Source: an uncultured PS1 clade bacterium | GTDB lineage: Bacteria; Pseudomonadota; Alphaproteobacteria; MED-G09 | Assembly: GCA_902533755.1 (NCBI GenBank) | Contig: CACANC010000001.1 | Span: forward strand, 3,668-67,667 | Length of the DNA stretch: 64,000 bases | Reading direction: 5' to 3' | Shown: positions 4,303-64,000 of the stretch, piece by piece | Numbering within the stretch: the first letter of the stretch is position 1 | Layout: the number at the start of each line of letters is the position of its first letter | The notes under the pieces: model-generated | What the model saw: the letters and a program-made list of their open reading frames with translations, nothing else | Told to the model about the DNA's origin: nothing | Databases searched by the model: none | Position numbers and translations under genes: made by a program

Positions 4303-4315
4303 TTAGGAGAATTTT

Positions 4316-5362: not shown

Positions 5363-5385
5363 AGGAATCAGTATAAAAATTAAAA

Positions 5386-7170: not shown

Positions 7171-7172
7171 AA

Positions 7173-10427: not shown

Positions 10428-10429
10428 AT

Positions 10430-11967: not shown

Positions 11968-12016
11968 AGCAATTTTAGGTTATCATAAAAAGTCTAAAGG
12001 TGATTCGTTAAATAAC

Positions 12017-12940: not shown

Positions 12941-12962
12941 GTTTATGAAACAATGAATAATT

Positions 12963-14333
12963 TCAAAATTGAGGAACCTTCTCTTTTCTGATCATAGTAT
13001 GAAGCCCTGATATTTTATTTAATCTTCTTGAAATAAGAGTTGCAAATATTGTCAAACCGACAATCATGCTGATCCACATTCCGCTTTCTCCCATGGGTTG
13101 GTTTATACCGTAATAAGTAAGATAGTAGCCAAAAGGTATAGCAAACACCCAATAGGCAATAATGATAAAAACCATTGTCATGAAAGTATCTTTATATCCT
13201 CTCAATGCCCCAAGACTTCCCATGCCAATACCATCGGGAATTTGGAAAATGGCAGCAAAAACAATTAAATGACTTGCAACGGAAAAAACCAGAACATCGG
13301 TTGTATAAAGTGATATAAGTTTGTCACCCATTGTGACTAGGAGTGTCATATTAAATAGGGCGCCAATTAAACATAGGTATACAGAAACCTTGGATGAGTA
13401 TCGTGCATCAATATATCTCTTTTCTCCCAGTAGATTACCGACCCTCGTTGATGCGGCAAGACCTATAGCCAGCGGTAACATAAATACAATGCTTGCAATG
13501 TTGAGTGCAACAGCATGACCCGAGACAACATTTTCTCCAAGCGGTGCTAGAATTATGGCAGCCCCTGAATACATGCTTAATTCAACAAATATTCCAAAAC
13601 CAATGGGGGTCCCAAGCTTGAAAACCTCCATGGAGGTTTTCAAAGATGGCCCATCAAATCTACTGAATAATTTATTTTTCTTATAGGATTTGGAAAATAA
13701 AACAATGCCAAGCATTGCAACAAACATTAGTGTTGAAACTATTGTTGTAGCATATCCACAACCAACACCTCCCATCTCTGGTAATCCGAAATATCCATAT
13801 ACAAATATTATATCCAGCGGGATATTTATTAATGCGCCCATGAAGACAACTATGAAAACTGGAATTGTAAGAGTTAAACCCTCGCTATATGAACTTAACA
13901 GTCTATACAATATATAGAAAAACATACCTATGGAAATTGCTTTGAGATAAGAAATAGATATTGAAGTAATTGTTTCATCAATAGGCAAAAAGATCAGTAA
14001 TTGGCTACCAAAATAGAAAATAATAACTAAAAGAAGGCCAAGTAAAACAGCCAACCAAAAGACTTCTCTTATTTTTTGACCTATTTCTAGATCTTTATTT
14101 GCACCATTAAGTTGCGCTACAATTGGAATGACAGAAAAAATTATCCCCGCCATAAACATGAAAATTGGATAAGTAAAGGAATTGGCTATTACAAGACCTG
14201 CGAGTTGGTCAGCTCCGGCTCTTCCAGCAACTATTGTATCCGTAGCTGACATAATCATAAATGATAATTGTGAACCAAGCATTGGAAAGCCAATACGAAA
14301 GAAATATTTGGATTCATTAAAGAATTTATTCAT
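12963..14333 (-). CDS. norM: MATE family multidrug/Na+ efflux transporter
   Basis: 456 aa, 12-TM profile, typical N-terminal MATE sequence (FRIGFPMLGSQLSFMIMSATDTIVAGR). Confidence 0.8.
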   Translation of the reverse strand: MNKFFNESKYFFRIGFPMLGSQLSFMIMSATDTIVAGRAGADQLAGLVIANSFTYPIFMFMAGIIFSVIPIVAQLNGANKDLEIGQKIREVFWLAVLLGLLLVIIFYFGSQLLIFLPIDETITSISISYLKAISIGMFFYILYRLLSSYSEGLTLTIPVFIVVFMGALINIPLDIIFVYGYFGLPEMGGVGCGYATTIVSTLMFVAMLGIVLFSKSYKKNKLFSRFDGPSLKTSMEVFKLGTPIGFGIFVELSMYSGAAIILAPLGENVVSGHAVALNIASIVFMLPLAIGLAASTRVGNLLGEKRYIDARYSSKVSVYLCLIGALFNMTLLVTMGDKLISLYTTDVLVFSVASHLIVFAAIFQIPDGIGMGSLGALRGYKDTFMTMVFIIIAYWVFAIPFGYYLTYYGINQPMGESGMWISMIVGLTIFATLISRRLNKISGLHTMIRKEKVPQF

Positions 14334-15162
14334 CTATGATATTTTTCCTAATAATTCTTGATGCTGTATCGATAATCGCAACCATTATAAGAATTAATAT
14401 TATGATAAATAGAGTTTGATCCCAGTATTGCGCCTTCATTCTCTCAGTTAGCTGTAAACCAATTCCTCCAGCACCAACAACACCAAGAATTACTGCTGAT
14501 CTTGTATTAGACTCAAAGAAATATAAGCTTTGCGAAATAAATATTGGAAAAATTTGCGGAATTAATCCGTAACGAATTACTGAAATCTTGCTGGCACCGG
14601 TTGATTGCATACCTTCAATTTGACGAGCATCAGCATTATCTGTTGCTTCTGAAAATAACTTTCCAAGTGTTCCTACATCAACTGTGAATATAGATAGTAA
14701 CCCAGCAAATGGTCCTAAACCGAATGCTCTTACATAAATAATTGCCCAGATTAATATATCAACTCCTCTAATAAAATCTAAAAAGCGTTTTATAAGAAAA
14801 CGTATTAAACCAAATTTGAAAATTTGACGCGAAGCAACAAAACTAATTGGTATACATACCAAAGTGGCTAAGAATGTACCTAAGAATGCCATACCAAGTG
14901 TTTGAGCTAGGCCAGTGAAGATAGAATTAAAATTCCAATTAAAAAAATCATTCCAGGTAAACATTGCAACTAAAATAGGTTTCATATTTGAAAGACCAGA
15001 AAGTATTTTTCCTAAGGAGAAATCAAAATAATATAAGCAAAATAGAAAATAGAAAATTACTAGTATGTAACCTGTAAAAACTATTGGTGAGCGTTTCCAT
15101 AAAGGGTAAAATGCTTTCGGACAGAGTGATATTATATCTTTTTCAGACACCCATCTCTCCAA
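14326..15162 (-). CDS. phnE: Phosphonate/phosphite-type ABC transporter permease
   Basis: 278 aa. PhnE/PtxC family permease with ABC TM domain. Overlaps the upstream paralog and the downstream MATE gene. Confidence 0.75.
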   Translation of the reverse strand: MERWVSEKDIISLCPKAFYPLWKRSPIVFTGYILVIFYFLFCLYYFDFSLGKILSGLSNMKPILVAMFTWNDFFNWNFNSIFTGLAQTLGMAFLGTFLATLVCIPISFVASRQIFKFGLIRFLIKRFLDFIRGVDILIWAIIYVRAFGLGPFAGLLSIFTVDVGTLGKLFSEATDNADARQIEGMQSTGASKISVIRYGLIPQIFPIFISQSLYFFESNTRSAVILGVVGAGGIGLQLTERMKAQYWDQTLFIIILILIMVAIIDTASRIIRKNIIDE

Positions 15163-22119: not shown

Positions 22120-23724
<1,605 letters not shown>

Positions 23725-50956: not shown

Positions 50957-52171
50957 TTAACATTTTCCAATTATTCCATTTTCTTCTAATTTATTAATTT
51001 CTTCTGTTGAGTAACCCATTTCACTTAATATTTCTTTGTTATGTTCACCGAGTAGAGGTGCCGGTCCTTTTGGTCCTACATCACTATCATGGAATTTAAC
51101 CGGAGAAGCTAAAGAAAGGTATTTTTCTTCACATTCTGGGTCTTCAATTTCAACAAATGATCCTGCTTCAATAGCTTGTTTGTCATTTGCAACTTCGCTT
51201 AAATTTTGTACAGGCGCCCAAATTAGATCTTCTTTGTCTAATCTTTCACCCCATTCTTCAAGAGTTAATTGACTAAAAGCTTCATCCATAGCTTTTACAA
51301 AGTCTGTAGAGTTAGACCTTCTACCATGATGATTATTAAATCTCTCATCTTCCAACCATTCTTCTCTCCCGATAGCTCTTGCTACTTGAGGTAAATCCCA
51401 ATCACCTCCTGCTCTTGGACTAAGGCATATCCATCTATCATCTTTGGTTTTAAAAAAATTAGCTATTGGATTTATTTGTTCATCTCTTTTTTTTGTTGAT
51501 GGAACTCTTCCAAACCTTAATTGAAGGGCCATATCTGAGCCTATGGAATAAATTCCTGTCCTTAAGAGAGAGCTCTCAACAACTTTACCTTTACCTGTTT
51601 TTTGTCTTTCATAAACTGCAGCTAATATTCCACTAACTGTTGATATTGAGGTGATATGATCTCCAACAGCAACTCTGATAGGTAAGGGCTCTTCACCTTT
51701 TCTCTGAGTTAAATGTGCCATTCCAGATCTTGACCAAAATGCAGCAATATCAAAACCAGGTCGATCTCTTTCTTCCCCGTCAAGACCGTAACCTGACAAA
51801 GAGCAATATATTAGCTTAGGATTAATTTCCAAAAGCGTTTCATGATCAAGTTTTGATTTTTCTAATGATGTAGGTCTAACATTTGTCAAAAAGATATCTG
51901 CATCTTTAATTAATTGTCTAACAATATCAGCACCTTTTTCATTGCTAGTATTTATTGTCATCCCTTTTTTACCTCTATTATCGAGACTAAAGATAGGGTT
52001 ACCTACGATTTCTAATTTTGATTTTGTTCCTTCAAAAAATGATCTCATTGGACAACCTGTCAATGGTTCAACTTTAATAACCTCTGCTCCCCAATCTCGA
52101 AGCATACCACCTGCTCCAGGAGCGGCTACATACGTTGACATCTCAATAACTCTTAATCCTTCTAACATCAT
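50957..52171 (-). CDS. Family III CoA-transferase (CaiB/BaiF family)
   Basis: 404 aa. N-terminal LEGLRVIEMSTYVAAPGAGGMLRDWGAEVIKVEP is typical of CoA-transferase family III. Confidence 0.8.
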   Translation of the reverse strand: MMLEGLRVIEMSTYVAAPGAGGMLRDWGAEVIKVEPLTGCPMRSFFEGTKSKLEIVGNPIFSLDNRGKKGMTINTSNEKGADIVRQLIKDADIFLTNVRPTSLEKSKLDHETLLEINPKLIYCSLSGYGLDGEERDRPGFDIAAFWSRSGMAHLTQRKGEEPLPIRVAVGDHITSISTVSGILAAVYERQKTGKGKVVESSLLRTGIYSIGSDMALQLRFGRVPSTKKRDEQINPIANFFKTKDDRWICLSPRAGGDWDLPQVARAIGREEWLEDERFNNHHGRRSNSTDFVKAMDEAFSQLTLEEWGERLDKEDLIWAPVQNLSEVANDKQAIEAGSFVEIEDPECEEKYLSLASPVKFHDSDVGPKGPAPLLGEHNKEILSEMGYSTEEINKLEENGIIGKC

Positions 52172-52233: not shown

Positions 52234-53025
52234 ATGGAAAATTCTTCTAATAAATTAATACCTGCTTCTACTGTCTTAGTTATTAGAGACGGTGTTGATG
52301 ATATAGAAGTCTTTATGGTTGTAAGGCATCACCAAATAGATTTTGCATCAGGTGCTTTAGTCTTTCCGGGTGGAAAAGTTGACGAAAGTGATCTTAATCC
52401 AGAATTAAGAAGATATGTATTTGCCGAAAAAGAAATTAGTGATCAAGAGTTAAGTTATAAAATTGCAGGAATAAGAGAGTGTTATGAAGAAGCAGATGTA
52501 TTATTTGCATACGAGCAAAATAAGAAAGAAATAATATCAAGTGAAAAATTGGAGAAATTAGCTCAGTGGCGAGATAAATTTAATAACAAAAAGGGATCAA
52601 TGTTTGATTTTGCTGTTAAAGAAAACATTAAATTTAATTTAGACAATTTAATTCCATTTGCACATTGGGTAACCCCAAAAATGATGCCAAAGAGGTTTGA
52701 TACTTATTTTTATCTTGCTGAAGCCCCAAGAGATCATATAGGCAAGCATGATGGAAAAGAGTCTATAGATTCAATTTGGATTTCTCCAAAACAGGCATTA
52801 GAAGACTGTATAGCTGAAAAACGAACTATAATTTTTCCGACAAGAATGAATTTAGAAAAATTATCAAAATTTAGAACTGTTAAAGAAGCCCTTGATGAAG
52901 TTAAAAAAGAAACAGTTATCACTGTTGAACCCAAGATAGAAAAGAATGAAGATGGAGTATTTTTAACAATACCTGAGAAGGCTGGATATGGTCTAATTAA
53001 AGAGCCTATAGAGAATTTAAAATAA
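52234..53025 (+). CDS. NUDIX hydrolase
   Basis: 263 aa. Nudix box (GGKVDE...REcYEEADV). Confidence 0.65.
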   Translation: MENSSNKLIPASTVLVIRDGVDDIEVFMVVRHHQIDFASGALVFPGGKVDESDLNPELRRYVFAEKEISDQELSYKIAGIRECYEEADVLFAYEQNKKEIISSEKLEKLAQWRDKFNNKKGSMFDFAVKENIKFNLDNLIPFAHWVTPKMMPKRFDTYFYLAEAPRDHIGKHDGKESIDSIWISPKQALEDCIAEKRTIIFPTRMNLEKLSKFRTVKEALDEVKKETVITVEPKIEKNEDGVFLTIPEKAGYGLIKEPIENLK

Positions 53026-53026
53026 A

Positions 53027-53794
53027 TTAAGAGTAAGTAAATTGTTCTTCTAAAATTTTTTCTTCTAGATTTGTTTCAGGATCAAAGAGCATAAACAATT
53101 CCGTTTTTCTATCCTCTGTTATTTTAACGCTTTCTATGTCTCTTATTTCAAGATTATCTGCAACTGCACTTACTGGTCTCTTATTTTTTTCTAATATTTC
53201 AATTTCAACTATTGAATCATGAGGCAGTAGTGCACCTTTCCATCGTCTTGGTCTAAATGCTGATATAGGAGTTAATGCTAATAAATTTGAAGTAATTGGA
53301 AGTATTGGTCCATGAGCAGATAAATTATAGGCTGTGCTCCCTGCAGGTGTTGCAAGTAAAATACCATCACATATTAATTCTTCTAATCTAATTTTATCAT
53401 CTATCTTAATTTTTATTTTTGCTGCTTGATATGTTTGTCTCAAAAGAGAAACCTCATTAATAGCTTTTGCTGATATTTCATCATGTTCAGTTATAACTGT
53501 CATTTGAAGAGGGTAAACTTTTGTTAAAGTGGCAGATTCAATTCTTTCTAACAGGTCGTCATCGTTATAATCGTTCATTAAGAAACCAACAGATCCTTTG
53601 TTAATACCAAAAATAGGCTTTGCCTCTTCAATATTATCATGAAGCGTTTTTAACATAAGTCCATCACCTCCAAGCGCAACAATTACATCAGCTTCAGAAG
53701 CAGAATAATCCTTGTATTTTTCTACTAGATTATCTTTTGCATCTTTTGCAGCCTTATTATCACTTGAAACAAAATGTATTTTTTTATCAGACAT
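53027..53794 (-). CDS. nadK: NAD+ kinase
   Basis: 255 aa. GGDGLML motif and NAD-kinase C-terminal β-sandwich sequence. Confidence 0.85.
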
Positions 53795-53879: not shown

Positions 53880-55046
53880 ATGAATTCAGACAACAGTAAG
53901 GTTGATTTAGTGAGTCAGGATGAGATGTATGATCCATCTATATCGGCTTCAAAATTATTAAATGGAAATAGAGTCTACCATTATGATTTATATGATCCTC
54001 CATTTTATATATTATCTAGATATGAAGATATTAGCTATGCTTTAAGAGAGCCTGATATCTTTATCGAAGGACATGGAAATGGACCTAATTTTATTGATTC
54101 TTCCAATGGTGTGCTCTCTGATGGAGAGCACCACACATTGATCAGAAGGATTGTGCAGCCGAATTTTTTAATGGGCTCAATTGCAAAATTAGAAGAAAGA
54201 TTGGAAAAGATTGCAGAAGAGCTTCTTGATGATGTGATAGAAAAAGATACCTGGGATATCCATGATAATTTATCATTCCCGCTACCAGTAATAATTATAT
54301 GTGAGATATTAGGTATTCCTATTGATGACATTCATAAATTTAAGCGTTGGGCAGATGCTACAGTAGAACAAATGTGTAGCGAGGAACCTCAAAAATTTGA
54401 AAAAGAATTAAGTCAAATGAGAGATTATTTATTAGACCTCATACTTAAAAAAAGAAAACAAGACGAAGATAGCACCCTTTTATCAAGGATTGCTCATTCA
54501 AAAATTGATTCAAGTTATTTATCAGATGATGAGGCTGTGAATTTGACTGTGCAAATATTTGTTGCAGGAAATGAGACAACAACCTCTTTAATTTCGAATT
54601 TAGTTTGGAGATTAATGACTATCGATAATTTGTGGGAAGATTTTGTAAATAACAAAATTGATATTAATAACGCTATAAACGAGAGTCTTCGTTATGATCC
54701 TCCTCTCTTAGGGTTATTTAAAACTACATCTAAAGAAGTGAATATTGAAGGAAATATCATACCGAAAAATTCGAAAGTAATGATGCATTATGGTGCGGCA
54801 AATAGAGATCCTGTGATTTTTAAAAATCCAAACACATTTGATTTAACTCGAGATGGGAGCAAAGTAATTTCTTTTAGTGTAGGAGTTCATATTTGTTTGG
54901 GAAGAGAGCTTGCGCGGTTAGAGACTAAGGTTACACTTAATGCATTAAAAAAGAGATTTCCTAATCTAAGATTAATTAATGAAGGAGAGAGAGTGGGCCC
55001 CTTTCTTTTTTGGGGTAGAAAAAAACTTCCTGTTTCTCACAAATAA
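53880..55046 (+). CDS. Cytochrome P450 monooxygenase
   Basis: 388 aa. AGNETT I-helix, ExxR (ESLRYDPP), heme loop FSVGVHICLGRELA. Confidence 0.85.
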   Translation: MNSDNSKVDLVSQDEMYDPSISASKLLNGNRVYHYDLYDPPFYILSRYEDISYALREPDIFIEGHGNGPNFIDSSNGVLSDGEHHTLIRRIVQPNFLMGSIAKLEERLEKIAEELLDDVIEKDTWDIHDNLSFPLPVIIICEILGIPIDDIHKFKRWADATVEQMCSEEPQKFEKELSQMRDYLLDLILKKRKQDEDSTLLSRIAHSKIDSSYLSDDEAVNLTVQIFVAGNETTTSLISNLVWRLMTIDNLWEDFVNNKIDINNAINESLRYDPPLLGLFKTTSKEVNIEGNIIPKNSKVMMHYGAANRDPVIFKNPNTFDLTRDGSKVISFSVGVHICLGRELARLETKVTLNALKKRFPNLRLINEGERVGPFLFWGRKKLPVSHK

Positions 55047-55049
55047 AAA

Positions 55050-56525
55050 ATGTTTTTAATTATTGATCAAGGCACCACATCCACAAAAGTAATGCTTTTT
55101 GATTTAAGCGGTAAAAAGGTTGATTCCAGTCAAAAATCTTTTGAGCAAATTTTTCCCAATAATGGTTGGGTCGAGCACAACCCTGAAGAGATTATCAAAA
55201 CTGTAATAAGTTGTTGTAATGAGGTGATAGAAAATAATTTTGATAAAAATATTTGTTCAATTGGTATCACCAATCAGAGAGAAACAATAGTTTTATGGGA
55301 TAAAATAACTGGTAAGTCTTTATACAATGCAATTGTATGGCAAGACAGAAGAACAGAAAGCTTATGCAAGGATTTAAAAGAAGAGGGCTATGAAGAATTA
55401 ATTATTAATAAAACAGGGTTATTATTAGACCCATATTTTTCATCAACAAAAATATCCTGGATTATAAATAATATTGATGGTGTTAAAGAGGCCATAAATG
55501 AAGATAAAGTATGTGCAGGAACTATAGACTCATGGATCATTTGGCATCTTACAAAAGGTAAGGTTTTTGCTACTGATATAACTAATGCAGCAAGAACAAA
55601 CCTTTTTAATATTAAAGATTTGAAATGGGATGATGATTTATTAAATCTTTTTCAAGTAAACGAATCGATCCTTCCAGAAGTGTTGGAATCTGATGCTTTT
55701 TATGGACAGTCAGAGGCGCTTATAAAGGAATTACCAATTTATGGTGTTATAGGAGATCAGCAGTCTGCTGCAATTGGACAAAAATGCTTTAATTTTGGAG
55801 ATATTAAGTCAACTTACGGAACAGGATGCTTTATATTATTAAATACAGGTAAAAAAATTGCATATTCAAAGAATGGCCTTTTATCTACTATAGCCTATAA
55901 AATTAATGGTGAAATAACTTATGCTTTAGAGGGTTCAATTTTTATGGCTGGTGCTATAATAGATTGGTTAAAGAATAATCTACAAGTATTTGATAATTAT
56001 AATGAATTGCAAGATATACTTAATAATAATTCTATCAATACCGAAATTGTAATGGTCCCTGCTTTTACTGGTTTAGGGGCACCGCACTGGAAACCAAATA
56101 GTCGAGCATCTATTTCAGGTTTAACACGAGATTCAAACAGAAATGATATAATAACTTCATCCGTTCAATCTATTTCTTTACAAACACACGATCTTATAAA
56201 AGCTATAAATGAGGATACTAGTAACTTATTTGAAGATCCAATTAGCAACATCAAAGTTGATGGAGGCTTGACCGAAAATGACTGGTTTATTCAGAATCTT
56301 TCAGATATTTGTGATATAAAAATAAGTAAATCAAATGAACAAGAAGCGACTGCTGTTGGTGCCGCTTCATTATCAGCGCTAGGCTCAAAAGAAATTAAAA
56401 ACTTGAGTGAATTTAATGTTAATATACATGAAAATATTGAATTTCAGCCAAAAATAGAAAAACAAACAAGAAAAGAAATAATAGATAATTGGAATTTGGC
56501 TATAAATAAAGCTGTCAGTCTCTAA
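55050..56525 (+). CDS. glpK: Glycerol kinase (FGGY family)
   Basis: 491 aa. IDQGTTSTK and FEQIFPNNGWVEHNPEEI closely match GlpK N-terminal signatures. Start 4 nt after the P450 stop. Confidence 0.8.
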   Translation: MFLIIDQGTTSTKVMLFDLSGKKVDSSQKSFEQIFPNNGWVEHNPEEIIKTVISCCNEVIENNFDKNICSIGITNQRETIVLWDKITGKSLYNAIVWQDRRTESLCKDLKEEGYEELIINKTGLLLDPYFSSTKISWIINNIDGVKEAINEDKVCAGTIDSWIIWHLTKGKVFATDITNAARTNLFNIKDLKWDDDLLNLFQVNESILPEVLESDAFYGQSEALIKELPIYGVIGDQQSAAIGQKCFNFGDIKSTYGTGCFILLNTGKKIAYSKNGLLSTIAYKINGEITYALEGSIFMAGAIIDWLKNNLQVFDNYNELQDILNNNSINTEIVMVPAFTGLGAPHWKPNSRASISGLTRDSNRNDIITSSVQSISLQTHDLIKAINEDTSNLFEDPISNIKVDGGLTENDWFIQNLSDICDIKISKSNEQEATAVGAASLSALGSKEIKNLSEFNVNIHENIEFQPKIEKQTRKEIIDNWNLAINKAVSL

Positions 56526-56572
56526 TTCTAATAATGCTGGTTTTATACTTACAAAGATTGTAATATTGGATC

Positions 56573-57328
56573 ATGAATAAAAAAATTAAAGAATCAGTTA
56601 GCGAAGAGGAATGGAATGCAAGGGTAGAGCTTGCAGCTTTATATAGGTTAGTTGCTTTATATGGTTGGGATGATCTTGTTTTTACTCATATCTCTGCGCG
56701 CGTTCCATCAGAACCTGAGCACTTCTTACTTAATCCATATGGTTTATTGTTCGATGAAATTTGTGCTTCTGATTTGGTTAAAATAGATCTTGAGGGAAAT
56801 AAGGTTTCTGAAACAAATTATAATGTTAATGCAGCTGGCTTTACAATTCATTCAGCAGTTCATTCTTCAGGTTCAAATAATCACGCTGTAATTCATACAC
56901 ATTCAAATGATGGAGTTGCTGTAGCAGCTCAAGAAGATGGTCTAATGCCAATAAGTCAGCACGCTATGGTTATTAGAAATGATTGCGCATATCATGACTA
57001 TGAAGGAATTGCTCTTAATTTAGATGAAAGAGAGAGATTAATTGACGATCTCGGTGATAAGCATTGCTTAATTTTAAAAAATCACGGTCTGTTAACAACC
57101 GGTGCTACTTGTGGAGATGCTTGGCTTCGTTTATTTTTTCTTGAAAGGGCATGCACCATGCAAATTAAAGCTTTAACAGGTGGTTTGAAACTCAATCAAG
57201 TTCCGACAGATGTTGTTGAGCTAGTTACCGAACAAGGTCAAATGGCATCCGATGATGGAATAGGCCAGCTTGCATGGCCTGGCCTTTTAAGAAAATTGGA
57301 TAAAATTGACCCCAGTTATAAGAATTAA
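56573..57328 (+). CDS. Class II aldolase/adducin-family protein
   Basis: 251 aa. His-rich Zn site (HTHSNDG...H) of the fuculose-phosphate-aldolase-like fold. Confidence 0.7.
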   Translation: MNKKIKESVSEEEWNARVELAALYRLVALYGWDDLVFTHISARVPSEPEHFLLNPYGLLFDEICASDLVKIDLEGNKVSETNYNVNAAGFTIHSAVHSSGSNNHAVIHTHSNDGVAVAAQEDGLMPISQHAMVIRNDCAYHDYEGIALNLDERERLIDDLGDKHCLILKNHGLLTTGATCGDAWLRLFFLERACTMQIKALTGGLKLNQVPTDVVELVTEQGQMASDDGIGQLAWPGLLRKLDKIDPSYKN

Positions 57329-57340
57329 AGAGGAGAAACA

Positions 57341-59653
57341 ATGAAATTTGCTGTAGGACAGCCTGTAACAAGGATTGAAGATACCCGTTTAATTACAGGA
57401 GAGGGTAATTATACGGATGATATCAAATTTAAAGATATGTGCCATGGTGTGTTTGTCAGATCACCTTATTCTCATGCAAAAATTTTAAATATTGATGTTG
57501 AAAGCGCTCGTAATATGCCAGGTGTAATTGATATCTTTACAAATAATACTTTCTCTGAAGCAGGTATAACTCATATGTCTGTTATTGATTTCCTTCAAAA
57601 TAAAGATGGCTCTCCTATGAATGCAAGTAAAAGACCTATACTAGCCTCAGATAGAGTAAGACATGTTGGGGATCCGGTTGTTTTTATTCTTGCTGAAACT
57701 GTTAATTTAGCTCTCGATGCTGCTGATAATGTAATAGTTGAATATGAAGAGTTACCGTGTAATTCAGATACCGCCAAAGCACTTAAAGATGAATCACCAA
57801 AACTTTTCGATGAATTTGAAACTAATTGTGCAGTTGACTGGGGTTTGGGTTCGGATGAAGGATGGAAAAAAGTTGAATCAAATGCGCATCATGTTTCTCA
57901 TGTTCATCTTATTAATAATAGAATTGTTGTTAACCCCATTGAACCAAGGTCTGCAGTATCAATCTTCAATAAAACCGATGGAAAATTTAAAATGCATGTT
58001 GAAAGCCAAGGTCCTCACGCCATGAGAGAAAGGCTTGCTAATACGCTTAATATTAAAGAAGAAGACATTCAAGTTATAACTAAAGATGTTGGCGGAGGAT
58101 TTGGTTTAAAGATGATGTGTTTTCCAGAATACATTGCTGTAATGCACGCTAGTAAAATTTTATCAAGACCTGTTAAATGGACCGCAACAAGATCAGAGTC
58201 TTTTTTAAGTGATGCACAGGGCAGAGACCATGTTACCGATGCATATTTAGCTATGGATAAAGAAGGAAAATTTCTTGGTGTAAAGGTTGAGACCACAGCT
58301 TCTGTTGGGGCTTATTTATCTCAATATGGCATTTTTATTCCTACTCTCGCAGCAGCTGGAATGCATGTAGGTGTATATAATATTCCTGTCATGGTTAATA
58401 ATGTTAAAGTTGTATATACAAACACTGTCCCTATTGATGCGTATAGAGGAGCAGGTAGACCAGAAGCAAGTTATGTTATTGAGAGATTAGTTGATCAAGC
58501 CGCCCGTGATATGTCACTGGGTCAAATAGAGATTAGAAAATTGAATTATGTCCAACCTTCTGATTTAGGTAATACTGAGGACCCCGTTATTCCTTTTGAT
58601 AGTTGTGATTTTGACAAAACAACCAACATGACTTTATTAAACTCATCTTTTGAGGATTTCGAAAAAAGACAGAAAAAATCTTTAGATGAAAATAAACTTC
58701 GCGGTATCGGTGTATCTTATTATGTTGAAAGAACTCAGGGAGAGGGGTCTGAAGATTCAAGAATAATTGTCTCAAGTGATGGCAAGGTAAATGTTTATAC
58801 GGGTACAATGGCAACAGGTCAAGGACATGAAACTGCATGGACACAGATTGTTGTTGAGAAATTAGGCGTTAACCCTGAAGATGTATCTATTCATTTTGGT
58901 GATAGTGAAGATCTGCCAAGCGGAGGTGGAACGGGCGGATCAAAATCATTGTATTTTGCTGCTGGCGCAATTAATGAGGCATCCGATGATGTTTTAAAAA
59001 AGGGAATTGAAATCGCTGCTGCAGAACTAGAGGCTTCTCTTGATGAAATAGAATATTCAACTGAATCTGGCCCTCTTTTTCAAGTACAAGGCACCAATAG
59101 AAATATTGATTTATTTACCGTAGCTAAAATTGCTGAAAACCAATCTAATACTCAAATGTTGGATGGAGCTAGTTCATATGAGCATAAAGACCCAACCTAT
59201 CCGAATGGTTGTCATATTTGTGAAGTGGAGGTAGATAAAGATACAGGAAATATAGAAATCATAAATTATCACGCCACAGATGATTTTGGAAAAATTATTA
59301 ATCCTCTTTTAGTTGCAGGCCAAGTTCATGGAGGTATTGTTCAGGGCTTAGGACAGGCAATGTGTGAGCATGCTATATATGAAGAGGAAACTGGGCAACT
59401 TTTAAACGGTTCATATATGGACTATCAAATGCCAAGAGCTGATGATTTTCCTGACTTTAATATTGATTTTAATGAAGAGGCAGAATGTACAACAAATTTA
59501 TTGGGAGCTAAAGGTTGTGGTGAAGCTGGAACTGTTGCCTCAACAACAGCTTATGTTAATGCAATCATAAACGCTTTAGAAGGTTTTGATACAAAGAAAC
59601 TTAATATGCCAATTACAGCGCAAAAAGTATGGGGGATTATAAATAATGCTTAA
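57341..59653 (+). CDS. Xanthine-dehydrogenase-family molybdopterin-binding large subunit (aldehyde oxidoreductase / CoxL-like)
   Basis: 770 aa. N-terminal QPVTRIEDTRLITGEGNYTDD and Mo-cofactor-binding region (GGGFG). No adjacent [2Fe-2S] or FAD subunit genes. Confidence 0.8.
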   Translation: MKFAVGQPVTRIEDTRLITGEGNYTDDIKFKDMCHGVFVRSPYSHAKILNIDVESARNMPGVIDIFTNNTFSEAGITHMSVIDFLQNKDGSPMNASKRPILASDRVRHVGDPVVFILAETVNLALDAADNVIVEYEELPCNSDTAKALKDESPKLFDEFETNCAVDWGLGSDEGWKKVESNAHHVSHVHLINNRIVVNPIEPRSAVSIFNKTDGKFKMHVESQGPHAMRERLANTLNIKEEDIQVITKDVGGGFGLKMMCFPEYIAVMHASKILSRPVKWTATRSESFLSDAQGRDHVTDAYLAMDKEGKFLGVKVETTASVGAYLSQYGIFIPTLAAAGMHVGVYNIPVMVNNVKVVYTNTVPIDAYRGAGRPEASYVIERLVDQAARDMSLGQIEIRKLNYVQPSDLGNTEDPVIPFDSCDFDKTTNMTLLNSSFEDFEKRQKKSLDENKLRGIGVSYYVERTQGEGSEDSRIIVSSDGKVNVYTGTMATGQGHETAWTQIVVEKLGVNPEDVSIHFGDSEDLPSGGGTGGSKSLYFAAGAINEASDDVLKKGIEIAAAELEASLDEIEYSTESGPLFQVQGTNRNIDLFTVAKIAENQSNTQMLDGASSYEHKDPTYPNGCHICEVEVDKDTGNIEIINYHATDDFGKIINPLLVAGQVHGGIVQGLGQAMCEHAIYEEETGQLLNGSYMDYQMPRADDFPDFNIDFNEEAECTTNLLGAKGCGEAGTVASTTAYVNAIINALEGFDTKKLNMPITAQKVWGIINNA

Positions 59654-60905
59654 AGAACTTCTTCGTCCAGATGTTTGGAGCCCAGAAATGGATCCTTATT
59701 CAATACCTATAGAAAAAATTGATATGGCAAATGCTGATATCTTTATGTACGGAGATGCAATTTTTCCATTATTTGAAAGATTAAGAAATGAAGACCCAGT
59801 TCATTATTGCGCTGAATCATGTGTTGAGGATGTTGGACCTTATTGGTCAATAACTAAATACAAGGATATAATGAGTGTTGATACTAACCATAAAGTTTTT
59901 TCATCAGAAGGAGCTATAACTATATTTGATCCTCAAGAAGATTTTACTACCCCAATGTTTATTGCAATGGATCCACCTAAACATGATATTCAAAGAAAAG
60001 CTGTTAACCCGGTTGTTGCTCCAAATAATCTTGCTAATATGGAAGATCTTATTAGAGAGAGAACCGCTGAGGTTTTAGATGGTCTTCCAAGAAATAAAGA
60101 ATTTAATTGGGTAGAGGACGTTTCTATTGAGTTAACAACAAGAATGTTAGCTACTTTATTTGATTTTCCTTTTGAAGACAGGATGAAACTCACAAGATGG
60201 TCTGATGTTTCTACTGCTAGGCCAGGTGATGGAATAGTTGAAACAGAAGAACAAAGAAAAGAAGAATTATTTGAGTGTCTTCAATATTTTACTAAATTAT
60301 GGAATGAAAGAGTTAATTCTGAGCCTAAAACTGACTTAATTTCTATGCTAGCGCATAATCCAAGTACGCGTGATATGGATCCTATGGAGTATTTAGGTAA
60401 TTTGATACTTTTAATTGTTGGGGGCAATGATACAACAAGAAACTCTATGACAGGTGGTATTTTGGTTTTAAATCAAAATCCTGATCAATATGATAAATTA
60501 AGAAAAGATCATTCTTTAATTAAAACTATGGTTCCTGAGATAATTAGATGGCAGACACCCCTTGCTTATATGAGGCGAACAGCCCTTGAAGATTATGAGT
60601 TGGGAGGAAAATTAATTAAAAAAGGTGACAAAGTTGTGATGTGGTATGTATCAGGAAACAGAGATGAGGATGTAATTGAAAATCCTGACAGCTTTATAAT
60701 TGATAGGGAAAGACCAAGAAACCATCTCTCATATGGTTTTGGAATTCACAGATGTGTTGGTAATAGATTAGCTGATATGCAGTTAGAAATTTTGTGGGAA
60801 GAAATAATGAAAAGATTTGAAAATATTGAAGTTGTTGGTGAACCAACTAGAATTAGATCAAGTTTTGTGAAAGGTTTTTCTCACCTTCCTGTTATTATTA
60901 GATAA
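59646..60905 (+). CDS. Cytochrome P450, CYP153-like (putative terminal alkane/alkyl hydroxylase)
   Basis: 419 aa. I-helix LLIVGGNDTTRNSM and heme loop FGFGIHRCVGNRLADMQLEILWEEI match my recollection of CYP153 signature motifs. Start overlaps the upstream gene by 8 nt. Confidence 0.75.
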   Translation: MLKELLRPDVWSPEMDPYSIPIEKIDMANADIFMYGDAIFPLFERLRNEDPVHYCAESCVEDVGPYWSITKYKDIMSVDTNHKVFSSEGAITIFDPQEDFTTPMFIAMDPPKHDIQRKAVNPVVAPNNLANMEDLIRERTAEVLDGLPRNKEFNWVEDVSIELTTRMLATLFDFPFEDRMKLTRWSDVSTARPGDGIVETEEQRKEELFECLQYFTKLWNERVNSEPKTDLISMLAHNPSTRDMDPMEYLGNLILLIVGGNDTTRNSMTGGILVLNQNPDQYDKLRKDHSLIKTMVPEIIRWQTPLAYMRRTALEDYELGGKLIKKGDKVVMWYVSGNRDEDVIENPDSFIIDRERPRNHLSYGFGIHRCVGNRLADMQLEILWEEIMKRFENIEVVGEPTRIRSSFVKGFSHLPVIIR

Positions 60906-60909
60906 TTTT

Positions 60910-61386
60910 ATGCTTGATAAAGCAAATAAAAACCTCAGAAGTATTTTTAGTAAGTTTGTTACTGGTGTAACAGCAGTTACTTTTAAAAGTTCCAATGGCT
61001 TAAATCTCGGTATCACAGTAAATTCATATACTTCATTATCTCTCGATCCACCTTTGATTTTATGGTGCCTAGATAAAAACTCTGATTTGTATGAAGAAAT
61101 AATTAACTTAGATGATTATATAATTAATTTTTTATCTGAAGAGCAAAGAGATTTAGCAAATTCTCTTGCACAAAAAAATGATCACATACTAAATGAGAAC
61201 CAATTTACTTCTATTGATAAGGGTTTGGTTATAAAGGACTCTATAGGTTGGTTATCTTGCTCGAAAAACCAAATAATTGATTCTGGTGACCACTCAATTT
61301 TGATAGCTGATGTCAATGAATCAGAAATAAGTGATGGTTACCCCCTTGTATTTTGGGGAAGTGGCTATAGATCTCTTGTAAGGTAA
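60910..61386 (+). CDS. Flavin reductase-like (HpaC-type split-barrel) protein
   Basis: 158 aa. FSKFVTGVTAVTF...LILWCL is typical of NAD(P)H-flavin reductase domains. Confidence 0.65.
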   Translation: MLDKANKNLRSIFSKFVTGVTAVTFKSSNGLNLGITVNSYTSLSLDPPLILWCLDKNSDLYEEIINLDDYIINFLSEEQRDLANSLAQKNDHILNENQFTSIDKGLVIKDSIGWLSCSKNQIIDSGDHSILIADVNESEISDGYPLVFWGSGYRSLVR

Positions 61387-61391
61387 ATCTA

Positions 61392-61850
61392 GTGTTGTTT
61401 TTACAATCTCATGTTAACAGAATAGTAAAAGTACCAAAAGAATATTTTTGGAAGCGATTAAGGGCCTTTGATAAGATTCAAACACTTTTACCTAGAACAA
61501 TTAAAGAGGTAAAAATTCCAGATAATTTTTCTAATTCTCCAGGTGATGTAAGGTATGTTTATCTTGAGAAAGTTTATCAAGGTGAAGTTATAGAAAGATT
61601 AGATGGAATTATAAAAGAAAAGTATATGTCTTATTCAGTTATTGATAAATCATGTCTACCAGTTGAAAATTATGTTTCTAATGTAAATATAAAACAAGCA
61701 AGTCAAAATTGTACTGAAGTTAATTGGTACGGTCATTTTAAAGCGGAAAAAAAGCATAAAGATGAAACAGTAAACATGTTTAAATTTAATTATAATCTTA
61801 TTTGTGACAACATGGAAAAACAATTTAATGAAGAGAAATCAGAAGTATAA
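61392..61850 (+). CDS. SRPBCC (Bet v1/START-like) ligand-binding protein, copy 1
   Basis: 152 aa. Paralogous (~45% identity) to the next ORF over the full length. Confidence 0.5.
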   Translation: MLFLQSHVNRIVKVPKEYFWKRLRAFDKIQTLLPRTIKEVKIPDNFSNSPGDVRYVYLEKVYQGEVIERLDGIIKEKYMSYSVIDKSCLPVENYVSNVNIKQASQNCTEVNWYGHFKAEKKHKDETVNMFKFNYNLICDNMEKQFNEEKSEV

Positions 61851-61859
61851 TTTAATAAT

Positions 61860-62321
61860 TTGGGTAGGGCTATATTTAAAGAAACAAAAGTAGAGAGGGT
61901 GGTCAATGTTCCTAAGAATTATTTTTGGGATAGGATTAGAGCATTTGGAGAAATTAAAACACTCTTACCTGAAAATCTTCTTGAGGTAAAACTTCCTGAG
62001 GATTTTTCTAACACTATTGGAGATTTAAGATCAGTTTATTTAGGCGATCCTTATCCAGGTGAGGTTATTGAAAGACTTGATGGTGTTGAAGAGGGATTGT
62101 CACTTACATACTCAATCATTGATGAATCATGTTTACCTGTTTCAAATTATGTAGCATGCGTAAACTTAAAAGATTTTTCATCAACCGAGACTGCTGTTTC
62201 ATGGTGTGGTCATTTTGTTGGTGATGGAAAGACAGAAGATGAAATCGCAGATTTATTGGAAGCTTTATACAACTTAATTCTCAATAATATTGAGGATCAA
62301 TATAAGAAATCTCAAAGTTAG
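61860..62321 (+). CDS. SRPBCC (Bet v1/START-like) ligand-binding protein, copy 2
   Basis: 153 aa. Tandem paralog of the previous ORF (shared VPKxYFWxRxRAF, GEVIERLDG, SCLPV motifs). Confidence 0.5.
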   Translation: MGRAIFKETKVERVVNVPKNYFWDRIRAFGEIKTLLPENLLEVKLPEDFSNTIGDLRSVYLGDPYPGEVIERLDGVEEGLSLTYSIIDESCLPVSNYVACVNLKDFSSTETAVSWCGHFVGDGKTEDEIADLLEALYNLILNNIEDQYKKSQS

Positions 62322-62326
62322 TTAAT

Positions 62327-63355
62327 ATGGCAATCGATAATTATGAATTTCAAAATATAAAATCTTTTTTAAAAAAAAATAATTTTATCTTATCTAATGA
62401 TTTACCAAGAAAAGTTGGCAATGGTCAGTCAAATCCAACTTATATATTGACAGATAATGAAAATAAAAAATTTATTTTACGAACTCAACCTAAAGGTGAT
62501 CTAGTGAGAGGCGCTCATAGGTTAGATCGTGAATTTCATGTTTTAAGAGGTCTTAGTAATCAGAAATTTAGCGTACCAAAACCAATATTAATTTGTGACG
62601 ATAAATCAACAATCGGTAGAGATTTTTATATAATGGACTTTATTGATGGAGATATTTACGAAGATCCTTTCCTTCCTGATAATAAGCCTAAAGAAAGAAA
62701 AAAAATTTACGAAAGCTTAGCAAATACTCTTGGCCAACTTCATAGTTATAATATTAATGAGTTAGATATACCCTTTAAAAAGAATAATGGCTTTATGATA
62801 AGAAATTTAAATATTTGGTATAACCAAATTTTTCATGATGGCTACCAAGATAAAGATATTTCAAAGATATATGATTTTATAATTAAAAATACTCCTGAAA
62901 ATAATAATTTATGCTTAATTCATGGAGATTATAAATTAGATAATTTAGTAATAGGCAGTAATTCAAAATGTTTGGCTGTTCTAGATTGGGAGTTATCTGC
63001 ATTTGGAGAACCTGAGGTTGATTTAAGTTTTCAAATGATCAATTGGTTAATTCCTAGGGGTGTTTTATATGGTATTGGATTAGAGTGGGAATCTTATCAT
63101 ATACCTTCTGCTGAAGATTTTCTTAATTCTTATGAGAAAACTTATGGAAAAATGGTTAATATAGAGCTCCTTAATATTTATTGTTTGTTCTCCTTAATAA
63201 AGCTCTACTGCATTCTCAAAGGTATAGAAAATAGAATAAAAGCTGGAAATGCTGCATCGGCAGAGGCTAGCGATAAAGTAAAAGATGCATTAGGTATTAA
63301 AGATGTGCTTATGTTGGCCTATCAAGATTATCCAAACAATATGATAGTTAGTTAA
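62327..63355 (+). CDS. Aminoglycoside-phosphotransferase-family (APH-like) small-molecule kinase
   Basis: 342 aa. Brenner motif LIHGDYKLDNLV and DWE catalytic Asp. Confidence 0.65.
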   Translation: MAIDNYEFQNIKSFLKKNNFILSNDLPRKVGNGQSNPTYILTDNENKKFILRTQPKGDLVRGAHRLDREFHVLRGLSNQKFSVPKPILICDDKSTIGRDFYIMDFIDGDIYEDPFLPDNKPKERKKIYESLANTLGQLHSYNINELDIPFKKNNGFMIRNLNIWYNQIFHDGYQDKDISKIYDFIIKNTPENNNLCLIHGDYKLDNLVIGSNSKCLAVLDWELSAFGEPEVDLSFQMINWLIPRGVLYGIGLEWESYHIPSAEDFLNSYEKTYGKMVNIELLNIYCLFSLIKLYCILKGIENRIKAGNAASAEASDKVKDALGIKDVLMLAYQDYPNNMIVS

Positions 63356-63365
63356 CCTTGATTAT

Positions 63366-64000
63366 TTAGCTAAAAGATAGTTCAGGAAAATCATTATCTA
63401 CAGACTCTCTTAAACGGTCATAATATACCCCAGCTCCACCAAAATATATTAGTACTCTGGAGTTTCTATTTTCGATATTTGCGCCCATCATCCATGAATT
63501 TACCTCGTCACCAACATTCATGAGTGTTTGTTCATGAACCTCTTTGACATGGGCTGACCATTCTCTCTCAGCTTCTAAAAGGGGATTACAGAGTTTGTAT
63601 CCTTCTTTTTCCATTTTATTGATACAATCAGATATCCATAAACAATTTTGTTCAATTGAAGTAGGAAGATTTGCAAAAGGAGCTTGCGGCCCAGTAATTG
63701 TAAATAAATTTGGAAAATCAGAAATGCATACGCCCATTATAGATTTTGACTCATTCTCCCATTTTTCTCTTATAGACTCACCGCTTTGACCAATAATATC
63801 GAATGCCTCAAGTGCACCTGTATAAGCTTGAAAACCTGTAGCTAAAATAATGATATCAAATTCATATTCATTTATATTTGTTTTAATACCATTTTCTGTA
63901 AAATGAGATATTGGCTCTCTATCTTTAATATCTACTAGATGAACATTATCTCTATTAAAGGCTTCATAAAATCCATGATCAAGTGGAGGTCTTTTAGCGA
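63366..64000 (-). CDS. Flavin-dependent (Baeyer-Villiger-type) monooxygenase, C-terminal part (N-terminus beyond window)
   Basis: ORF-track segment plus hand translation of 63738-64000 (...DIIILATGFQAYTGALEAFDIIGQSGESIREKWENESKSIMGVCISDFPNLFTITGPQAP...). Matches BVMO/FMO C-terminal ATGF and FPNLF regions. Confidence 0.7.
   Translation of the reverse strand, partial: AKRPPLDHGFYEAFNRDNVHLVDIKDREPISHFTENGIKTNINEYEFDIIILATGFQAYTGALEAFDIIGQSGESIREKWENESKSIMGVCISDFPNLFTITGPQAPFANLPTSIEQNCLWISDCINKMEKEGYKLCNPLLEAEREWSAHVKEVHEQTLMNVGDEVNSWMMGANIENRNSRVLIYFGGAGVYYDRLRESVDNDFPELSFS

Follow-up and report, generated by a model that had tools for sequence, protein, structure and literature searches.

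Our analysis of a 64,000-nucleotide (nt) stretch of contig CACANC010000001.1 (hereafter the window, by which we mean the whole stretch) indicates that the nine plus-strand open reading frames (ORFs) near its end, which span 53880-63355 (9,476 nt in the ORF list), are a composite of three pieces. These are an accessory cytochrome P450 gene, an inherited block of genes for glycerol kinase (glpK), a class II aldolase-family protein and the large subunit of a molybdenum (Mo) hydroxylase, and an island, specific to the OCS116 clade, that would serve aliphatic or alicyclic oxidation and to which a convergent Baeyer-Villiger monooxygenase (BVMO) gene belongs. We put the probability of this reading at about 0.6. 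It draws on gene order in a comparison set of 95 related loci, the window proteins being scored against 15 loci of the OCS116 clade and 73 CYP153 loci of other bacteria. The genes concerned, followed by the two that anchor the block upstream, are these (aa, amino acids):

53880..55046, plus strand: accessory cytochrome P450, 388 aa; Pfam p450 1.3e-31; no assignable CYP family
55050..56525, plus strand: glycerol kinase GlpK, 491 aa; NCBIfam TIGR01311
56573..57328, plus strand: class II aldolase/adducin-family protein, PRK07044 subfamily, 251 aa; Pfam Aldolase_II 4.6e-45
57341..59653, plus strand: molybdenum hydroxylase large subunit, 770 aa; Pfam Ald_Xan_dh_C, MoCoBD_1 and MoCoBD_2
59646..60905, plus strand: CYP153A-subfamily cytochrome P450, 419 aa, its start possibly the ATG at 59689; Pfam p450 and PDB matches
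60910..61386, plus strand: NAD(P)H:flavin reductase of HpaC/StyB/FerA type, 158 aa; Pfam Flavin_Reduct 2.3e-25
61392..61850, plus strand: SRPBCC/Bet v1-fold protein 1, 152 aa, GTG start; Polyketide_cyc2 1.4e-5
61860..62321, plus strand: SRPBCC/Bet v1-fold protein 2, 153 aa, TTG start; Polyketide_cyc2 2.3e-5
62327..63355, plus strand: APH-fold small-molecule kinase of ACAD10/ACAD11/LvaA type, 342 aa; Pfam APH 8.1e-33
63366..64000, minus strand: type I BVMO, C-terminal 210 aa of the translation, running off the window
52234-53025, plus strand: Nudix-like gene (Pfam)
53027-53794, minus strand: NAD kinase gene (Pfam), with the Nudix-like gene the anchor beside the glpK-aldolase-Mo block

Searches with Pfam and NCBIfam profiles reproduced every family name that the initial annotation of this DNA had given to the nine ORFs, and its layout of the genes also holds. 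Read directly, the first P450 gene ends with a TAA stop at 55046 and the ATG of glpK stands at 55050, the 4-nt spacing that had been described; the Mo-subunit and CYP153 genes share ATGCTTAA, an 8-nt overlap; and the minus-strand ORF 63366 to 64000 places the BVMO gene convergent with the run. The overlap depends on the choice of start codon, because the PDB alignments of the CYP153 protein begin at residue 16: a start at the alternative in-frame ATG at 59689 (residue 15) would leave a 35-nt gap and no overlap.

The window has a GC content of about 32% and is about 95% coding. Its closest records are single-cell genomes of the OCS116 cluster and metagenome-assembled genomes (MAGs) labelled Rhodobiaceae or Alphaproteobacteria, with CYP153 proteins 96-98% identical, and their DNA is collinear with the window to its last base at 91-93% identity (92-93% for loci L007 and L009). 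Outside the clade, the nearest relatives of the CYP153 and Mo-subunit proteins are found in Parvibaculum/Parvibaculaceae, consistent with the placement of OCS116 in the Parvibaculales that we take SILVA to give; NCBI taxonomy lists the clade as incertae sedis. Judged by the CYP153 proteins and the collinear DNA, the host belongs to the OCS116 clade and not to the Pelagibacterales, the group that the initial annotation had named first for comparison.

Within the OCS116 clade, where the CYP153 proteins are 77-98% identical to that of the window, glpK, the aldolase-family gene, the Mo-subunit gene, CYP153 and the flavin reductase gene are always present and in this order. The BVMO gene occurs in every locus (fragmented in L004), and two SDR genes, an esterase gene, an iron-type alcohol dehydrogenase (Fe-ADH) gene and a third SDR gene follow wherever the contig is long enough. 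Beyond the flavin reductase the arrangement varies. The window, L007 and L009 have CYP153, the reductase, the two SRPBCC genes, the kinase, the BVMO on the minus strand and then the SDR genes onward; L008 has a gene for a TonB-dependent receptor between the two SRPBCC genes (12242-14527); L001-3 have the receptor (~11800-14050), one SRPBCC gene and no kinase; in L004-6 and L013 the BVMO gene lies directly 3' of the reductase and is followed by Rieske, SRPBCC and kinase genes that run into the SDR-esterase genes; and in L089-90 the Rieske gene is inverted. Modules are thus reshuffled between subclades and never separated, which argues for selection on their co-location. L010-12 (~11840-14090) also encode the outer-membrane receptor, a protein of 745-761 aa with 76-82% identity between loci that the window lacks; its presence points to the import of a substrate that is bulky or hydrophobic.

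Outside OCS116, where the CYP153 proteins are 63-72% identical (Parvibaculaceae, Caulobacteraceae, Pseudomonadales), none of the 73 loci links the neighbours seen in the window to CYP153. The block, for its part, stands at the same anchor in Parvibaculum. There the order is Nudix, NAD kinase, (CutA, MoaA), FGGY kinase, FAD-linked oxidase, aldolase, Mo subunit and a TetR regulator, followed by unrelated genes, and no CYP153, flavin reductase, SRPBCC, kinase or BVMO gene accompanies it in these Mo-subunit-anchored loci. The Nudix and NAD kinase orthologues of Parvibaculum locus L087 are 51% and 58% identical and hold the same relative position, as does the GlpK orthologue (44-47% identity); the aldolase-family orthologue is 63-65% identical and that of the Mo subunit 51-53%. 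Since the block occurs at this anchor without the P450s, the nine genes do not form one evolutionary unit. On this comparison, glpK, the aldolase-family gene and the Mo-subunit gene are an inherited block at a conserved anchor that predates the P450s, and CYP153A, the flavin reductase, the SRPBCC genes, the kinase and the BVMO are an OCS116-specific island downstream of it.

The single nine-gene unit proposed in the initial annotation is not borne out by this comparison, and its first P450 gene is accessory (see below). What remains of the proposed oxidative module is a BVMO-centred set, kept in every OCS116 locus examined and larger than the window shows (SDRs, esterase, Fe-ADH and Rieske oxygenase); glpK, the aldolase-family gene and the Mo-subunit gene fall outside it as a separate block, and in none of the 73 loci beyond OCS116 are the neighbours linked to CYP153.

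The second P450 of the run is firmly assigned, by sequence, as a true CYP153A, where the initial annotation had called it CYP153-like. It matches PDB 7ANT at 6.8e-183, with 67% identity over 399 aligned residues, which lies above the values of at least 40% identity to named members taken for the family and at least 55% for the subfamily, and it matches CYP153A7 from Sphingopyxis (3RWL) at 2.9e-177. The family motifs are present as LLIVGGNDTTRN and HLSYGFGIHRCVGN (I-helix GGNDTTRN, heme loop GFGIHRCVGN); the I-helix reads LLIVGGNDTTRNSMTGG, and the heme loop HLSYGFGIHRCVGN has one conservative F-to-Y change with respect to FGFGIHRC. The sites GGNDTT(RN) and FGFGIHRC were reportedly used by van Beilen and colleagues in 2006 for CYP153-specific primers. 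An exact-sequence look-up of the window protein returned no record; its homologues number at least 8,000 proteins, single clusters at 90% identity holding 350-570 sequences.

The window BVMO fragment is 93-97% identical to its orthologues in L007-L009. The 535-aa protein of L008 (93% to the fragment) aligns over residues 3-528 with phenylacetone monooxygenase (PAMO, 4.1e-131) and with the cyclohexanone monooxygenase (CHMO) of Thermocrispum (4.9e-128). Type I BVMOs are recognised by the fingerprint FxGxxxHxxxW(P/D), an N-terminal GxGxxG and GGTWxxNRYPG; the L008 orthologue has GAGFAG at residue 13, GGTWAWNRYPG, and the fingerprint as FNGPCFHSSRWP at residue 157, this part of the gene lying beyond the window. 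An AlmA-type long-chain alkane monooxygenase was considered for this protein and rejected, the strong matches being to the PAMO/CHMO/STMO group. Past position 64000, the collinear relatives carry the rest of the BVMO gene, two SDR genes, a gene for an esterase of the GESAG-type hormone-sensitive lipase (HSL) family, one for an alcohol dehydrogenase of the iron type, a third SDR gene and a gene for a Rieske oxygenase alpha subunit. In L007 the BVMO, the two SDRs, the GESAG esterase, the Fe-ADH and the third SDR are contiguous, which matches the joint encoding of alcohol dehydrogenase, BVMO, lactone hydrolase and omega-hydroxyacid dehydrogenase expected of chn-type clusters; the window itself contains only the BVMO C-terminus. 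No gene of the aldehyde dehydrogenase family was found among the loci examined.

Two further observations concern BVMO genes elsewhere in the comparison set. In L004 (11843-14806; GCA_045565375.1, a 1.44-Mb contig) several short ORFs stand in place of the BVMO gene and of a Rieske gene, and the flavin reductase ORF is cut short; L005 and L006, whose CYP153 is identical to that of L004, have all these genes intact, and the broken ORFs probably reflect assembly frameshifts and not pseudogenes. A distant flavin-monooxygenase/BVMO-like gene (25-37% identity to the OCS116 BVMO) is found in eight unrelated CYP153 loci, five of them from MAGs of Pseudomonadales/Gammaproteobacteria (L026, L033, L036, L047 and L048) and the others L037, L080 and L083; it lies ~0.5-4 kb from CYP153 in seven of the eight and ~7 kb away in L083. 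A loose association of CYP153 with BVMO-like genes may thus recur outside OCS116.

CYP153 enzymes usually work as class I three-component systems, with the ferredoxin and ferredoxin reductase typically encoded alongside. The window protein shares family and subfamily sequence, I-helix and heme loop with such systems (3RWL, 7ANT), but, unlike them, its gene has neither an adjoining ferredoxin or reductase gene nor an AraC- or TetR-type regulator, and is preceded by the Mo subunit and followed by a small flavin reductase. In none of the 15 OCS116 loci does a gene for ferredoxin or ferredoxin reductase occur within ±10 kb of CYP153. The closest Parvibaculaceae CYP153 genes likewise have no adjacent redox partners, so that adjacency is typical and not obligatory. 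The window ORFs examined, three of them P450 genes, offer a single ferredoxin candidate and a single reductase candidate, both outside the locus and 37 kb upstream of CYP153, where the two genes are convergent and overlap by 4 nt:

22120..22440, plus strand: [2Fe-2S] ferredoxin, 106 aa; Pfam Fer2 6.9e-14
22437..23507, minus strand: thioredoxin-reductase-like flavoprotein, 356 aa; Pfam Pyr_redox_3 and Pyr_redox_2

The ferredoxin is 49-60% identical to ferredoxins encoded in 14 of the 73 outgroup CYP153 loci, in 10 of them immediately adjacent to CYP153, which makes it a reasonable candidate electron donor for the three P450s of the window; the flavoprotein would be a candidate ferredoxin-NADP reductase.

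Every one of the 15 OCS116 loci, and not one of the 73 of the outgroup, encodes the flavin reductase directly 3' of CYP153 (the gap in the window being 4 nt); its matches to the NCBIfam models FerA, StyB and HsaB are all under their cut-offs. It could be imagined as an unconventional partner of CYP153 that replaces the ferredoxin and its reductase, with the Mo subunit perhaps feeding electrons from aldehyde oxidation to the P450; the locus holds no ferredoxin or reductase where 10 of the 73 outgroup loci have an adjacent ferredoxin, and the Mo subunit has no electron-transfer subunits nearby. Such an arrangement seems to us very improbable. PF01613 reductases are known partners of two-component flavin monooxygenases, and a monooxygenase of the luciferase-like kind is encoded in this very locus in L010-12; the window ferredoxin resembles those adjacent to CYP153 elsewhere; the closest outgroup CYP153 genes also do without adjacent partners; and within OCS116 the reductase is far less conserved than CYP153 (47-57% against 77-87%). 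From the usual role of the family and the luciferase-like gene of L010-12, the protein is most likely a remnant or partner of a two-component flavin monooxygenase and not a P450 reductase.

This locus encodes a luciferase-like monooxygenase only in L010-12, where the gene (8733-9974 in L011, for a 413-aa protein) separates the Mo-subunit gene from CYP153. Three Caulobacteraceae loci (L054, L077, L082) have an orthologue of 59-60% identity at a distance of 1-2 kb from CYP153. We did not retain an identification of the L010-12 gene as LadA, its best PDB match (6.5e-26) being an uncharacterised luciferase-like protein.

The two SRPBCC proteins are tandem paralogues, 50% identical, whose Polyketide_cyc2 matches cover nearly the full profile length at E values of ~1e-5 and fall under the gathering score (25.9 bits for protein 1, where the gathering score is 27.4). 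The AlphaFold2 (AF2) model of protein 2, made from a two-sequence alignment and of low confidence (predicted local distance difference test 54, predicted template modelling score 0.53), was used for fold class only; it has a beta-alpha-beta6-alpha topology, and all 50 PDB matches listed by Foldseek were of the Bet v1/START fold (PYL receptors, YPO0625, XoxI; TM 0.66-0.78). Both proteins are accordingly predicted to have the helix-grip Bet v1/START fold. A CoxG identity is not supported, Pfam giving Polyketide_cyc2 alone.

The kinase has the kinase domain of ACAD11 as its best PDB match (8V3V, 2.7e-47), followed by 3DXP (2.2e-45), and carries the beta3 Arg in FILRTQP, HGDYKLDN at residue 199 and LDWELS at residues 219-224. 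These correspond to the features described for ACAD10-family kinases, namely the APH fold, the beta3 Arg, the HxDxK loop and the DWE metal motif (PMC13596139). Fold, family and motifs are shared with LvaA of the LvaA/LvaC pair (Pseudomonas putida levulinate operon) and with mammalian ACAD10/ACAD11; unlike in those systems, the window kinase has no adjoining acyl-CoA dehydrogenase or histidine phosphatase, neighbours that its 33-37% identical bacterial homologues do carry. No acyl-CoA dehydrogenase partner was found in any OCS116 locus examined; an adjacent one is present in two of the three distant homologues examined. The substrate of this family is itself disputed: LvaA and ACAD10/11 are 4-hydroxyacyl-CoA kinases according to two peer-reviewed papers (PMC12440821, PMC11342911), whereas in a 2026 preprint 1-O-alkylglycerols and 1-acylglycerols are reported as the compounds phosphorylated by the ACAD10 kinase domain and by several of its prokaryotic homologues (PMC13596139). 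By analogy with LvaA, the window kinase fits as an enzyme that would ready 4-hydroxy acids, the products of gamma-lactone opening, for beta-oxidation.

Within the inherited block, GlpK passes TIGR01311 narrowly (607.0 bits, cut-off 590.35) and NF000756 with 603 bits against 498; its top PDB matches are all glycerol kinases (4E1J, 2.6e-143), and it contains NQRET, WQDRR, DPYF and GDQQ, which we take, from E. coli GlpK, to be the glycerol-site motifs. The aldolase-family protein scores 371 bits with NF005451 (cut-off 207), has an intact metal triad (HxH at 108-110 and NHG at 170-172) and matches best, at 5e-74, a PDB entry of unknown function (3OCR). Between OCS116 subclades (window against L004, L013 and L089) GlpK is 52-67% identical, compared with 77-94% for the aldolase-family protein, 71-83% for the Mo subunit and 77-87% for CYP153; the low conservation of glpK may reflect either faster evolution or replacement.

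The Mo subunit has the three domains and the catalytic Glu of a xanthine-dehydrogenase-family large subunit, with the loop AYRGAGR at residue 367 and the catalytic GAKGCGEAG at 721-729. It matches PDB 7DQX (5.7e-111), 8UEM and 4ZOH and reaches no NCBIfam equivalog, the best being glyceraldehyde dehydrogenase alpha (582 bits against 790). A form I CoxL would have an AYxCSFR loop with a Cu-binding Cys and CoxS/CoxM genes alongside; form I CO dehydrogenase was rejected on the loop, on TIGR02416 (430 bits against 991) and on the lack of CoxS/CoxM genes nearby, and the AYRGAGR loop marks the protein as form-II CoxL-like. It shares its three-domain architecture, the loop and the catalytic Glu with 6-hydroxypseudooxynicotine dehydrogenase (7DQX) and Sulfurisphaera glyceraldehyde oxidoreductase (4ZOH), but, unlike them, has no genes for a small [2Fe-2S] or medium FAD subunit nearby and is invariably accompanied by genes for an FGGY kinase and a class II aldolase-family protein. 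The description of this subunit as an orphan holds for the ORFs and flanks covered: no CoxS/CoxM-like subunit appears among the annotated window ORFs (about two thirds of the other ORFs being read only from their first residues), no [2Fe-2S]/FAD subunit gene lies within ±8-10 kb in the OCS116 relatives, and the Parvibaculum orthologue likewise has no partner subunits within 8 kb.

The block probably serves glycerol or small-aldehyde metabolism, to judge from its gene content. In Parvibaculum L087, L088, L091 and L092 (~2900-7900) an FAD-linked oxidase (FAD_binding_4 and FAD-oxidase_C, of GlcD/D-lactate-dehydrogenase type) is encoded between the FGGY kinase and the aldolase, and a divergent MoaA gene lies upstream; both the MoaA and the oxidase gene are missing from the OCS116 block. 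Kinase, aldolase, aldehyde oxidation and 2-hydroxyacid oxidation would make a tidy chain in Parvibaculum. The 344-aa gene downstream of the Mo subunit there was considered as a relative of the window kinase and found not to be homologous.

In the first P450 of the run the heme loop (FSVGVHICLG) and the I-helix (AGNETT) are intact, all its NCBIfam matches are far under the cut-offs, and its best PDB matches are of CYP107 type (5OFQ at 3.7e-48, EryF, Vdh). It is present in L001-3 and L007-9 only and absent from L004-6, L010-13 and L089-90, the subclades without it having CYP153 proteins 77-81% identical to that of the window. From this distribution it is an addition between NAD kinase and glpK, confined to the closest subclade of the window. 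A third P450 (423 aa, unassigned family) is encoded at 9156-10427, after a housekeeping run, and is abutted by an SDR gene (10430-11227) that a gene for a membrane protein of the 3-oxo-5-alpha-steroid 4-dehydrogenase family (11224-11967; Pfam Steroid_dh 2e-51) overlaps convergently; 9156-11967 is thus a second small lipid-type oxidation cluster in the window. The 404-aa ORF at 50957-52171, at first another candidate for the third P450, proved to encode a family III CoA-transferase.

From the functions of their families, the products of the OCS116-specific island can be arranged in a putative pathway. CYP153A would hydroxylate an alkane, an alkyl chain or a cycloalkane with electrons from the ferredoxin and reductase 37 kb upstream, and the SDRs and Fe-ADH encoded beyond the window end would convert the alcohols to aldehydes or ketones. 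The type I BVMO would turn ketones into esters or lactones, from which the HSL-type esterase would release alcohols and acids, or hydroxy acids. The ACAD10/LvaA-type kinase would then phosphorylate a hydroxylated intermediate, most likely a 4-hydroxyacyl-CoA, for entry into beta-oxidation. The two SRPBCC proteins may bind or shuttle a hydrophobic ligand that the TonB-dependent receptor would import in some relatives, and the flavin reductase would most likely serve a two-component flavin monooxygenase and not the P450.

The logical order of these steps is shared with the cascade of P450, alcohol dehydrogenase, CHMO and lactonase characterised in Acidovorax CHX100 (PMC7056670, PMC8085927). Like the island, CHX100/chn-type clusters combine a class I P450, an SDR-type alcohol dehydrogenase, a CHMO/PAMO-family BVMO, an alpha/beta-hydrolase and a further alcohol dehydrogenase. 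Unlike them, the OCS116 locus lacks the usual aldehyde dehydrogenase, adds SRPBCC proteins, an ACAD10-type kinase, a Rieske alpha subunit and sometimes a TonB receptor, and belongs to a streamlined open-ocean oligotroph and not to a solvent degrader such as CHX100. BVMO-esterase pairs serve subterminal alkane and methyl-ketone oxidation, and the logic of BVMO, esterase and alcohol dehydrogenase is common to the island and to such systems (the acetone monooxygenase of Gordonia TY-5; the SAR11_0845 BVMO with its Fe-ADH); unlike in these, the OCS116 BVMO sits in a larger island with CYP153. For SAR11 a BVMO and Fe-ADH route has been proposed for acetone and cyclohexanol, which makes SAR11_0845 a precedent in a marine oligotroph for BVMO use of volatile ketones and cyclohexanol (PMC9300024).

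Gene spacing lends no weight to an operon. The initial annotation had seen one or two operons in the overlapping and abutting boundaries; however, a median of 5 nt separates same-strand neighbours in the region, and one of 7 nt those in the remainder of the window (Mann-Whitney p=0.96), and a co-oriented 10-gene run of the same length, without evident common function, stands at the window start. Overlaps and short gaps are a property of this genome, co-orientation and abutment do not exceed background, and neither is an argument for an operon in the nine-gene run. Consensus scans gave 51 promoter-like sites where shuffled controls predict 57 and 6 terminator-like sites where they predict 5.4; at or below the shuffled expectation, they are uninformative on operon structure, and neighbouring genes may or may not be co-transcribed. 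The same results favour an explanation in which there is no functional unit at all, only independent neighbours in a 95%-coding streamlined genome held in place by OCS116 synteny, as do the equal conservation of the housekeeping flanks (thrS, Nudix, NAD kinase) and the lack of a regulator in the locus. We nevertheless consider this rather unlikely, since about 17 kb hold three to four oxygenases, four dehydrogenases, an esterase, ligand-binding proteins and, in some relatives, an outer-membrane receptor, the genes match steps of characterised alkane, cycloalkane and ketone pathways, and the modules are rearranged among subclades but never dispersed.

At the other extreme, all nine genes could form one pathway for alkyl-glycerols (ether lipids) or similar compounds, in which a P450 hydroxylates the ether-linked carbon to yield glycerol and a fatty aldehyde, GlpK and the aldolase take up the glycerol, the Mo enzyme oxidises the aldehyde, and the kinase and SRPBCC proteins handle the lipid. 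O-dealkylation is an ordinary P450 reaction; glpK, the aldolase gene, the Mo-subunit gene and CYP153 are adjacent in every OCS116 locus, the last two overlapping by 8 nt in L001 as in the window; and the kinase, with its DWE motif and beta3 Arg, is of the ACAD10/11 family, prokaryotic members of which are reported to act on 1-O-alkylglycerol (PMC13596139). Yet the block stands at the same anchor in Parvibaculum without P450, kinase or BVMO, and the short gaps are the norm for the genome. The Mo-subunit and CYP153 genes are 63-66 nt apart in subclades with 77-78% identical CYP153, and in another a whole luciferase-like gene lies between them. In subclades other than that of the window the kinase gene is grouped with the SDR-esterase genes and not with glpK, and phosphorylation of an alkylglycerol would be a salvage and not a catabolic step. 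CYP153 enzymes, moreover, are terminal hydroxylases (of medium-chain alkanes or alkyl chains), and none is known to cleave ethers. A single nine-gene pathway is therefore unlikely. As for the alkyl-glycerol substrate that the initial annotation had put forward, the reported activity of the kinase family lends it weak support and the comparative data speak against the single pathway it was tied to, which leaves it quite unlikely. Very unlikely, in our judgement, is a bacterial catabolism of 1-O-alkylglycerols in which a P450 replaces the animal alkylglycerol monooxygenase and CYP153, the BVMO and the esterase process the alkyl chain.

Several observations also weigh against the composite reading that we prefer. 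Missing from the island are a regulator, a dedicated ferredoxin or its reductase, an acyl-CoA synthetase and an acyl-CoA dehydrogenase of the LvaC kind. The flavin reductase lacks a partner in the window, where no HpaB-type oxygenase was found among the annotated ORFs and a tblastn search with the luciferase-like protein of L011 had no match anywhere. The genes for thrS, CoA-transferase, Nudix and NAD kinase are as well conserved across the OCS116 loci as those of the island; since synteny extends to thrS and NAD kinase, co-conservation alone reflects general synteny and is weak evidence. In the subclade of the window the Mo-subunit gene abuts or overlaps CYP153, and the block and the island are possibly coupled. 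Finally, in a Gulf of Mexico metatranscriptome cyp153 expression came only from Pseudomonadales (PMC13488336).

Among alphaproteobacterial MAGs in the same study, 'fmo' expression was highest in 'Rhizobiales AG-430-B22 sp003212795' (PMC13488336). AG-430-B22 is the name of an OCS116 single-cell genome (NCBI taxid 2162588), and its fmo may or may not correspond to the island BVMO.

The components of the island and their proposed chemistry are known, indeed textbook, from degraders of hydrocarbons and ketones; the novelty lies in their combination and in the host. Here a CYP153A that lacks neighbouring redox partners is joined to a BVMO-esterase-alcohol dehydrogenase set, SRPBCC proteins and an ACAD10-type kinase, and the island is conserved across an abundant, streamlined open-ocean clade that does not figure among hydrocarbon consumers in the literature searched. 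The literature on OCS116 or Parvibaculales in connection with hydrocarbons, alkanes or CYP153, so far as searched, yielded no account of this locus; Nie et al. (2014) note only Parvibaculum-like CYP153 reads in marine metagenomes. For annotation, the run illustrates that in a streamlined genome co-orientation and overlapping stop and start codons define neither an operon nor a pathway. For enzymology, the locus brings P450, BVMO, esterase and ACAD10-type kinase genes together in compact form and provides a natural test of the substrate used by bacterial ACAD10-like kinases.

OCS116 is a widespread clade of the surface ocean with a small, low-GC genome, and CYP153 proteins of this type and their relatives are very common in marine metagenomes. 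Surveys attribute the marine hydrocarbon cycle mainly to Gammaproteobacteria and to carriers of alkB (PMC13488336, PMC11409719). If the island works as proposed, OCS116 would be an overlooked consumer of aliphatic and alicyclic hydrocarbons and ketones, with cyanobacterial alkanes, phytol-derived ketones and volatile organic compounds as candidate substrates, and this would bear on the short-term marine hydrocarbon cycle.

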